From Candidatus Yanofskybacteria bacterium (GTDB lineage Bacteria; Patescibacteriota; Minisyncoccia; 2-02-FULL-40-12; GWA2-44-9), in NCBI GenBank assembly GCA_903830625.1, contig CAIKUK010000015.1, positions 37 to 64,036 of the forward strand: a stretch of 64,000 nt of DNA, in the 5' to 3' direction. Position numbers and translations under genes: made by a program. Below the pieces are notes generated by a model. That model did no database searches, had not been told where the DNA came from, and saw only the letters and a list, made by a program, of their open reading frames with translations. Shown here in pieces: positions 35,299-36,234 of this stretch (position 1 is the first letter of the stretch; each line of letters opens with the position of its first letter).

Positions 35299-35816
35299 TG
35301 TCTAGAAATTTAAATTCCCAAAAAGGATTCACTTTGGTCGAGGTTATCATATCGGCTTTTGTTTTTTCTATCATCGCTATTGTCGTAAGCGGATTGTTCG
35401 TCCAAATTTTAGCCCTGGAACGCCGAGCTTTTGCCTCCCAAAAAATTCAAGAGAACGGTCTTTTTATCATGGAACTGATGTCGCGCGAAATTCGCGTCAG
35501 CCAAATCCAAAATCAAGATTCTTTGAATTGCACTGCCACTTCACTGTCCATTATTCACCCCGTTAACGGCCCAGTGGTCTACTCGTTGAACAATGGCGTT
35601 CTCCAACGCACCGCGGAAGGCGTGGTTACCGATCTAAGTTCATCTACGGTCGCATTTTCACGATTGAATTTCTGTGTTATGGGTTCGGGACCAGCTGATG
35701 CCCAGCAGGCCAGAGTAGCTATTCTGGCTTCTATTCAAAATAAAACCGGCCGAGAAATATTAACCACTAGTTTTGAGACCACAGTCTCTTCCCGCGATGT
35801 TCAAACTGAATTCTAA
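35298..35816 (+). CDS. Pseudopilin / minor pilin 3 (PilW/GspJ-like)
   Basis: MSRNLNSQKG followed by FTLVEVIISAFVFSIIAIV. Confidence 0.65.
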   Translation: MSRNLNSQKGFTLVEVIISAFVFSIIAIVVSGLFVQILALERRAFASQKIQENGLFIMELMSREIRVSQIQNQDSLNCTATSLSIIHPVNGPVVYSLNNGVLQRTAEGVVTDLSSSTVAFSRLNFCVMGSGPADAQQARVAILASIQNKTGREILTTSFETTVSSRDVQTEF

Positions 35817-36234
35817 CCACAACCCCGGTAGTGAAAGTTCGAGCATTTCCCGACGGCGGAGCCGACTCGAACTTCTACTACCCGGGAACCAAAAGGGCTC
35901 CGTCATCATATTTACGGTCTTGATGTTGGGGAGTATGCTGGCCATAACCCTGGCCCTAGCCGGTATTTACTTGCCCAAGCTCCGAGCCGTGAATGATGCC
36001 GGGGCCGGCTCAATTGGAGCTATTTATGCCGCTGACAGCGCTTTGGAGTGGTGCATCTACACTAACCGCGGTAACCCGGTCCTACCGCCACCAGTGATGT
36101 CCAACGGCGCCACCTATAGAATCTTGCCCACAAGCCCCCCAGCGGCCGCGAATTGCACAGCTCTACCATTAAATAACCAAGCCGTTGGCACGTATCGCAA
36201 TGTCAGCCGTTCTCTGGAGGTAACCACGGAATAA
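35797..36234 (+). CDS. Pilin-like protein with an atypical long leader (PilX-like?)
   Basis: ...[26 protein letters not shown] resembles a prepilin signal but has no E5. The putative leader region is a copy of the family-B inverted-repeat element. The start is uncertain, with an alternative ATG near 35925. Confidence 0.35.
35823..35886. repeat. Inverted-repeat element, family B, copy c (CCCGGTAGTGAAAGTTCGAG ... CTCGAACTTCTACTACCCGGG)
   Basis: Short 64-nt copy embedded at the 5' end of the pilin-like ORF. Confidence 0.6.

Follow-up and report, generated by a model that had tools for sequence, protein, structure and literature searches.

A hairpin element inserted in frame in the leader-coding segment of a minor-pseudopilin-like gene of Candidatus Yanofskybacteria, and candidate relatives that encode a GIY-YIG domain

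This report concerns a 62-nt hairpin element that lies in the leader-coding segment of a minor-pseudopilin-like gene (35797-36234) in a 64,000-nt stretch of a Candidatus Yanofskybacteria genome (GenBank assembly GCA_903830625.1, contig CAIKUK010000015.1), the whole of which we call the window; loci in other genomes are designated by L numbers. The closest described systems are short palindromic repeats and selfish nuclease genes. Correia elements of Neisseria are of the type of miniature inverted-repeat transposable elements (MITEs), measuring 50-150 bp, with hairpin-forming inverted repeats and short duplications, and they are multi-copy, lie beside or across gene starts and are co-transcribed with genes. 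Their target duplication is TA, and elements with a DDE transposase are the source of most other MITEs. To our knowledge, neither the Correia elements nor the Rickettsia palindromic elements (RPEs) have an autonomous partner. Homing endonucleases possess DNA-binding domains, target a single cognate site through repair and produce no duplication. Copies of repetitive extragenic palindromic (REP) sequences within genes and at N-termini are documented, with a caveat about the true start sites (PMC3733652). Lastly, a 2024 survey in J Bacteriol of rRNA genes in the Candidate Phyla Radiation (CPR) describes GIY-YIG open reading frames (ORFs) in insertions that resemble neither group I nor group II introns, and many short ORF-less insertions of under 200 bp (PMC11270868).

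Against this background, the locus in the window comprises the following features.

35797-36234, + strand: minor-pseudopilin-like gene of 145 aa plus stop, from ATG 35797 to stop codon 36232-36234, last in a type IV pilus operon
35797-35898, + strand: segment coding for the putative leader peptide, 34 codons ending at an invariant glycine (Gly34) in alignments; insert-free orthologues have 12-aa leaders
35821-35824, + strand: 5' copy of the target-site duplication, AAC(C), where the empty L001 site contains AACC only once
35825-35886, + strand: ORF-less hairpin element of 62 nt, CCGGTAGTGAAAGTTCGAG...CTCGAACTTCTACTACCCGGG, delimited by the empty-site alignment with L001, the inverted repeat and the fold, with a boundary ambiguous by 1 nt
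35887-35890, + strand: 3' copy of the target-site duplication, AAC(C), from the alignment with L001

Codons 10-31 of the gene are a 66-nt insertion, composed of the 62-nt element and a 4-bp duplication, AAC(C), which together add 22 codons in frame. This assignment is made because the closest insert-free relative, P0005 (302-kb contig L001; 79.5% nucleotide identity across the operon), carries the exact empty site. Inspection of the alignment reveals a 66-column gap flanked by the duplicated AAC(C), where the empty allele of L001 reads ...TCTAACCACAACCAAAAGGG and the window reads ...TCTAACCAC[AAC CCCGGTAGTG...CTACTACCCGGG]AACCAAAAGGG. The syntenic empty site, ...CACAACCAAAAGGG, encodes MFKPNSNHNQKG|S, and the insert-free orthologue in L125 likewise has a 12-aa leader, MFKQNSNNKERG. 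The insert itself forms an imperfect hairpin with 21-nt arms at 35823-35843 and 35866-35886 by inverted-repeat search, and 35825-35886 folds at -32.3 kcal/mol (z = -5.1 versus shuffles). L002 and L003, two independent public assemblies, both carry an identical insert, which is therefore not an assembly artefact. An earlier reading made from the letters of the window alone (the sequence-only reading) had offered insertion into the 5' end of a minor-pilin gene, with a 34-aa leader, as one of two options and had pointed to orthologues lacking the element as the informative comparison; the L001 allele supplies that comparison and supports the option. Its description of the ORF as following three pseudopilins, with a prepilin-like N-terminus that lacks Glu5, likewise agrees with the operon context and the residues given below. 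Its equation of the upstream in-frame stretch with a repeat element holds for the + strand hairpin at 35825-35886 with one qualification, namely that the three copies in the window share only their ~20-nt arms.

We interpret this arrangement as follows, and place the explanation as a whole, including membership in a family with a GIY-YIG-encoding full form, at a probability of roughly 0.78. A non-autonomous, ORF-less copy of a small hairpin mobile element inserted between codons 9 and 10 of a minor-pseudopilin gene, producing a target duplication of 3-4 bp (AAC/AACC). The gene stays intact through the addition of 66 nt in the stop-free 'PGSE...LLLPG' frame of the element, such that ribosomes beginning at the conserved ATG 35797 would read through the hairpin and generate a positively charged, disordered leader of 34 aa instead of 12 aa. 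Judging from the junction motif and the operon, PilD would be expected to cut after Gly34 and release a normal mature subunit of 111 aa, and the insertion would be tolerated, and nearly neutral, because the leader is discarded.

The nature of the host gene was addressed through its surroundings, its junction and its predicted fold. Gene labels for the operon, which is complete, come from Pfam on the matching genes in L002, together with N_methyl matches.

26052-27101: pilM
27318-27875: pilN
27872-28399: pilO
28808-30562: pilB
30510-31646: pilT
31636-32844: pilC
32928-33461: major pilin
33517-34269, + strand: pilD, prepilin peptidase and expected remover of the leader (Pfam A24_N_bact and Peptidase_A24 on the same gene in L002)
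ending at 35816: the last of three pseudopilins (N_methyl), which lie directly before ORF 35797-36234

The start of ORF 35797-36234 overlaps the upstream pseudopilin gene by 20 nt, ligA is the next gene after the operon, and the operon gene order, with this ORF last, is kept in every relative fetched. The encoded protein possesses a prepilin-type junction, NQKG|SVIIF, in which Gly34 precedes a hydrophobic stretch of ~20 residues with Ser at +1 and Phe, not Glu, at +5. A protein search recovered ~110 homologues, those named by source being Candidatus Yanofskybacteria or other Parcubacteria, and every sequence in an alignment of 97 homologues has Gly34, with Ser35 and Phe39 kept in at least 90%. 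The AlphaFold2 model of the 145-aa protein (97-sequence alignment; predicted local distance difference test score, pLDDT, of 84.5) depicts residues 1-32, which comprise the leader and insert, without secondary structure (pLDDT ~52), residues 33-90 as a single long helix (pLDDT >90) and then three strands. From operon position, the conserved Gly-1 junction and the predicted fold taken together, the protein is best described as a probable small minor pseudopilin without Glu5, a description based on these features and not on a sequence profile. GspK-type tip subunits also lack Glu5.

Several observations weigh against this interpretation. No Pfam or NCBIfam model matched the protein of ORF 35797-36234, and it thus lacks a match to any pilin profile, PF07963 (N_methyl) included, with Ser at +1 and Phe at +5; two neighbouring pseudopilins score 1e-7 and 3e-8 with PF07963. 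The 34-aa leader exceeds the 10-12-aa leaders of the three neighbouring N_methyl pseudopilins, and a hairpin of -32 kcal/mol beginning 28 nt past the start codon could reduce expression. The 64-kb window holds no full-length GIY-YIG element with family arms. Finally, a protein search recovers only orthologues with a surviving ORF, so that the tally of leader inserts as always in frame, given next, is partly ascertained.

A crippled gene is the alternative that survives best, although we consider it unlikely. Here the long leader would go unprocessed, or the hairpin would block ribosomes coupled from the upstream gene, the subunit would be produced poorly or be absent, and the open frame would reflect a recent event. 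Such a gene would be consistent with the very high stability of the hairpin, with a leader roughly threefold the 12 aa of the insert-free L001 and L125, and with the fact that the family insert in the leader is known from this one genome only (cluster P0001, a single member sequence in two assemblies). However, different in-frame inserts occupy the corresponding slot of an otherwise conserved gene in no fewer than five other lineages, which argues that long leaders are compatible with gene retention. The slot spans ~15-20 nt between the stop codon of the upstream gene and Gly-1. It contains a 64-nt palindrome in L128 (CCCCTCACATGAAGA...TCTTCATGTGAGGGG, whose TCCG duplication falls precisely on the G|S junction), a 71-nt palindrome in L006 (TCCCGTACGAAAT...ATTTCGTACGGGA), an insert of ~60 nt in L005, a short GC hairpin in L004 and L126, and another short GC hairpin in L127. 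All leader-slot inserts read at the DNA level are in frame and stop-free from the conserved ATG, with lengths of 6 to 25 codons. Six relatives read at this level stay open from that ATG, five of them with other hairpin inserts. The palindromes of L128 and L006 may represent additional arm families in gene-less form. Two properties of the window allele also argue against a crippled gene, in that the insert is stop-free with a length that is a multiple of three, and the positive charge of the segment encoded at 35797-35898 suits a cytoplasmic leader.

The second option of the sequence-only reading, a start downstream of the element with the element serving only as a structured 5' untranslated region, is disfavored by these comparisons and strikes us as decidedly improbable. 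Gene callers did pick an internal ATG for several homologues, and where REP-type repeats are annotated as N-terminal coding sequence, they often prove to be extragenic (PMC3733652). It is also the case that, among 36 ORF-less family copies flanked by TATG (described below), the upstream ATG is not preferentially in frame (14/36, with 6 of these open), such that read-through of those copies as a class was considered and rejected for want of enrichment. At the pilin locus, in contrast, no in-frame ATG, GTG or TTG is present between 35887 and the Gly34 codon. The next in-frame start lies past Gly34 and would remove the invariant Gly-1/Ser+1 junction together with the conserved SVIIFTVL part of the helix. 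Upstream of the insert, the ATG and the MFKLN/MSKLN motif that follows it are conserved among homologues, and every insert read keeps the frame. Eight homologues are called at 93-96 aa, and we asked whether these represent frame-broken alleles; the two read at the DNA level, L125 (MFKQNSNNKERG|S) and L126 (MFKLNSNLPRPAGGDQRG|S), have intact leaders, which identifies those two as gene-calling artefacts. Because no in-frame start lies between the element and Gly34 and relatives keep the frame open, translation from ATG 35797 through the element to yield a 34-aa leader is the best reading of the locus, and at the level of sequence this appears to settle the long N-terminus as genuine coding sequence instead of the result of a mis-called start.

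Matching codons around a hairpin are a geometry known from phage T4 gene 60 and the yeast mitochondrial bypass ('byp') elements. Skipping or removal of the element at the RNA level, by ribosome hopping from AAC to AAC or by endonucleolytic processing to restore a normal 12-aa leader, seems to us very improbable: identical AAC codons do flank a stable hairpin, and the conserved GGUAGUGA does carry UAG and UGA in one frame, but the element lies here in its open frame, where bypass is not needed, the take-off codon is not followed by the stop codon of programmed bypass, none of the three window copies matches a ribozyme or intron model in Rfam, and the in-frame H+-pyrophosphatase copy and fused nuclease ORFs described below point to plain read-through.

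The insert belongs to a family of elements with a wide distribution. The pattern GGTAGTGAAA NNN CG ... CG NNN TTCTACTA, in which the distal stem is left free, matches arms of the form CCNGGTAGTGAAA...TTCTACTACCNGG in at least 118 stretches from species-representative genomes, nearly all of them from CPR/Patescibacteria. Lineages with these arms include, among the matches listed, to which the counts out of 124 copies below also refer, Saccharibacteria, Moran-, Lipton-, Portnoy-, Harrison-, Nealson-, Gottesman-, Giovannoni-, Jorgensen-, Doudna- and Yanofskybacteria. Some metagenome-assembled genomes hold several matches each, and ORF-less copies measure 48-135 nt. At the stem positions left free by the pattern, pairing holds in 109-114 of 114 short copies through several pair types and compensatory changes, against shuffle means of 46-98.

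Inspection of the flanks reveals identical 4-nt sequences on both sides of 78/124 copies. TATG is the commonest duplicated flank (31 copies, plus 5 with CATG/TATG), while CTTG, AAAA, TCCA, TATA, TTGA, CATG, TGGA, CAAG and CATA are also found. In 40/124 copies an ORF of 60 aa or more on the element strand has its start codon within the 3' duplicate; only 6 copies show this in the opposite orientation. The 36 non-redundant TATG copies have essentially no Shine-Dalgarno motif upstream, and in 19 of them a TAnnnT hexamer ends 6-8 nt before the A of the ATG (for example in L118, L104, L119 and L051). Because Shine-Dalgarno motifs are lacking and a -10-like TAnnnT lies 6-8 nt upstream, this pattern suggests that TATG-flanked copies land on the +1/ATG of leaderless genes. 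Further insertion sites are TTGACA-like and TATAAT-like boxes, GGAGG and the final codons of genes. We also looked for a guide-like link between arm sequence and duplicated 4-mer, and none was evident by eye.

A further in-frame copy is found in L121 inside a full-length H+-pyrophosphatase gene (PF03030, 5e-262), where it encodes PGSENSAAAKQQSGKKAEFLLPG in the sense frame (PGSEN...FLLPG). Separately, copies in L100 and L030 lie in an antisense frame (GGSRSS.../PGSRTS...) within long ORFs. Nested and tandem elements were observed in L053, L076, L033, L093, L099 (two sites), L110, L135, L189 and L204; nesting takes place in the loop of another element or at GTGAAAA|TTCGAC of another's arm with an AAAA duplication, and back-to-back copies can share one TATG.

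The family also has a full-length form. When an autonomous copy with a classical transposase was sought among arms 150-4000 bp apart, the sole match was L080, a 300-nt element whose arms enclose an ORF of 86 aa, and this ORF is a GIY-YIG domain (PF01541 at 1.7e-17, with another such protein at 2.4e-18). Similar GIY-YIG ORFs lie between or beside family arms in L099, L022, L023, L063 and L073. For an unbiased test, six GIY-YIG proteins were aligned and 80 metagenome loci were fetched by protein similarity alone. The 5' arm is present within ~130 nt of the ORF in 77 of these loci, the 3' arm in 68 and both in 67, and most of the remaining loci have arms in swapped polarity. The resulting 59 non-redundant full-length elements span 302-389 bp, most of them 309-327 bp, and no known transposase was seen inside them. 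Positions that are invariant in the GIY-YIG alignment include Y3, Y16, G18, R26, H30, N31, E50 and E62, in keeping with the Tyr, Tyr-Ile-Gly, Arg, His and Glu residues typical of the superfamily.

The arms of the full-length elements describe a 20-bp stem in which all 20 positions pair, with compensatory changes at 9/10 positions left free by the matching. These free positions pair in 50-52 of 52 elements (51-52 at all but one). At positions 10-11, every one of the 52 elements of the common polarity has G.T and A.C, two positions that the matching pattern fixed; this mismatch sets the polarity of the element. A TATG flank is found in 27 full-length elements, and TGGA and GGAG/GAGG are also seen. 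The ATG of the nuclease usually lies 27 nt from the element end, and its stop codon overlaps the 3' arm 19-20 nt before the other end; in TATG copies the duplicated ATG then follows one base later. Among 37 full-length elements that follow an ATG, 28 have that ATG fused in frame through the 5' arm (MPGSENST.IM-FYY...) to the nuclease ORF, against a chance expectation of ~12, which we take as selection for this frame. The pilin leader of the window and the L121 H+-pyrophosphatase copy use the PGSE... frame as well. Because the nuclease fusion, the pilin leader and the H+-pyrophosphatase all use this frame, the 5' arm appears to be kept coding-competent, and landing in frame would be harmless because of it.

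From these observations we propose, tentatively and at somewhat short of even odds, that the pilin-leader repeat is the gene-less form of an undescribed class of mobile element. Its full form would be ~315 bp, with an 86-aa GIY-YIG gene within a 20-bp hairpin that has an invariant G.T/A.C tandem mismatch. Such an element would make 4-bp duplications, prefer leaderless-looking TATG starts, borrow the host start codon for its nuclease and leave the duplicated ATG to the host gene. As part of the same proposal, and held just as tentatively, gene-less derivatives would be scattered over CPR genomes at start and stop codons, in promoter boxes and leader peptides, and possibly in rRNA genes. A literature search, whose incomplete coverage makes the word 'undescribed' provisional, found no description of these arms, duplications or start-codon preference.

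Two further copies of the family and one element of a second type lie elsewhere in the window.

17346-17480, + strand: long ORF-less copy of 135 nt flanked by TGGA, right after ATG 17341-17343, with GTG 17480 in frame with a xerC-like ORF
27185-27318, + strand: long ORF-less copy of ~134 nt flanked by TGG(C), right after the original pilN ATG (27181-27183); empty sites in L001, L127 and L128
39956-40244, + strand: second hairpin element, whose unrelated 18-bp arms, CCCGCACATAAACGCTAT and ATAGCGTTTATGTGCGGG, enclose a GIY-YIG ORF (PF01541, 1e-11)

Together with 35825-35886, the first two make three family copies in the 64-kb window, all on the + strand; they are the only matches to the arm-plus-arm pattern there, and shuffled sequence yields none. 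The interiors of the two long copies are ~95 nt. At pilN, the empty site of L001 (AATAATGGCTGATAAAGG) contains ATG GCT GAT as the gene start, and the filled site of the window reads AATAA-TGGC-[element]-TGGC-TGATAAAGG. The last G of the element and the duplicated TGG rebuild a GTG start at 27318 that continues pilN, and the old ATG now opens a 3-codon reading frame ending in TAG. The same filled site is found in L004, and its presence in the window and the more distant L004, with absence from the closer L001 and from L127 and L128, is compatible with either precise loss or repeated insertion. At the other long copy, ATG 17341-17343 lies 7 nt downstream of TATAAT and now opens an upstream reading frame of 15 codons, and the xerC-like ORF after 17480 matches Pfam Phage_integrase; by analogy, an empty site may be presumed here. 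The pilN and xerC copies were also considered as conserved regulatory RNAs, a role that was rejected given that the pilN copy is absent from L001, L127 and L128 at an otherwise conserved site. An Rfam search of the window at gathering scores returned tRNAs only, with no riboswitch, ribozyme or intron, and E-value searches of all three copies gave only chance-level matches. The tRNAs that ARAGORN predicts in the window have no connection with the elements.

A TAA stop codon interrupts the window's own GIY-YIG ORF (39976-40161); family arms were sought around this ORF, and different arms were found instead. The 'hairpin plus GIY-YIG' architecture thus exists with more than one arm family. The element at 39956-40244 supplies the last three codons and the stop codon of gatA, and a full-length member of this architecture has been gained or lost at the site, because three relatives (L001, L128 and L004) lack it there.

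Other repeats and insertions were recorded in the window and its relatives. A separate family of post-gene hairpins, ACCCGCCTAA(A/G)TTTT...AAAA(C/T)TTAGGCGGGT, is found at 3548-3584, 17229-17295, 28711-28747 and 62120-62156, and in L004 at ~725-765; these look like shared intrinsic terminators or a REP-like repeat and may be what the sequence-only reading called 'family A'. An 87-nt direct repeat of 85% identity has copies 759 nt apart (55559-55645 and 56318-56404) and a third, partial copy at 26010-26045, and a cluster of overlapping inverted repeats built on TGGTGACACTAGTGTCACCA spans 11956-12077. Three tRNAs are predicted by ARAGORN only and not by Rfam at gathering score (24189-24279, 23001-23090 and 44806-44877; Ser-ACT, Ser-GCT and Pro-CGG), of which the one with the unusual ACT anticodon may be a false call. 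Between ligA and gatC, a reverse transcriptase (RVT_1) is present in L004 (12966-14364) and L128 (12499-14016), accompanied in L004 by a bAvd-like gene and a HicAB pair. This arrangement looks like a diversity-generating retroelement, and none of these genes is found at the corresponding position of the window.

Taken by itself, the pilin case is tidy but unsurprising selfish DNA in a permissive coding slot. A cleavable prepilin leader would serve as a safe landing strip for such DNA in a genome with almost no intergenic space, and the same ~20-nt slot has been filled independently in at least six lineages. The family is the more interesting result. It would explain many of the odd 5' ends seen in CPR, together with GTG starts, N-terminal extensions and short upstream ORFs, as well as the abundance of tiny GIY-YIG genes there. 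The unexplained insertions in CPR rRNA genes, both the short ones and those with GIY-YIG ORFs (PMC11270868), may be accounted for in this way too, and may be the same elements. If the 86-aa nuclease does drive insertion with 4-bp duplications at start codons, it would constitute a new minimal transposition system and, at the same time, a natural probe of translation initiation in CPR.

Comparison with known systems relates the element to several described classes. Within the pilin field, the mature protein is much smaller than GspK and, among GspK/PilX-type minor pilins, is set apart by matching no pilin sequence profile. In contrast to type IVb pilins, its long leader is not ancestral and is the product of a mobile-element insertion. 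A GIY-YIG catalytic domain on a selfish insertion is shared with homing endonuclease genes, yet a classical homing endonuclease gene was rejected as an identity, since the domain here is a bare 86 aa, lies in no intron, occurs at many target sites with flanking duplications and is bordered by its own inverted-repeat arms.

With REP sequences and REPINs, the family shares a GTAG tag on one arm (CCNG-GTAG-TG) and CTAC on the other. The likeness extends to a hairpin with compensatory changes, to G-T stem pairs and to the stop and start codons given to neighbouring genes (PMC3733652, PMC3116915). REPINs, however, make no target duplication and are linked to one RAYT (Y1/HUH) gene per genome, whereas 78/124 copies here have 4-bp duplications. 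Identity with REPINs was rejected despite the tag, given these duplications and a linked ORF of the GIY-YIG type (PF01541, 1e-17), no genome-wide search for RAYT genes having been made.

By its structure the element is a MITE, with inverted-repeat ends, target duplication, multiple copies, the lack of an ORF and a longer relative with the same ends. The family consists of multi-copy, short, non-coding elements with 20-bp terminal inverted repeats, and duplication is documented in two empty/filled pairs between the window and L001. What distinguishes it from Correia elements and most other MITEs is a partner ORF that is an 86-aa GIY-YIG domain, a TATG start-codon target without Shine-Dalgarno motif, and a 5' arm that is open in one frame. 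RPEs and intragenic REP copies are likewise short palindromic mobile repeats that lie in frame in coding genes and add a tolerated peptide. There is no sequence relationship to either, and the element described here has 4-bp duplications and a full form that encodes a GIY-YIG domain. In contrast to those systems, moreover, its insert lies in a predicted cleavable leader rather than in the mature protein.

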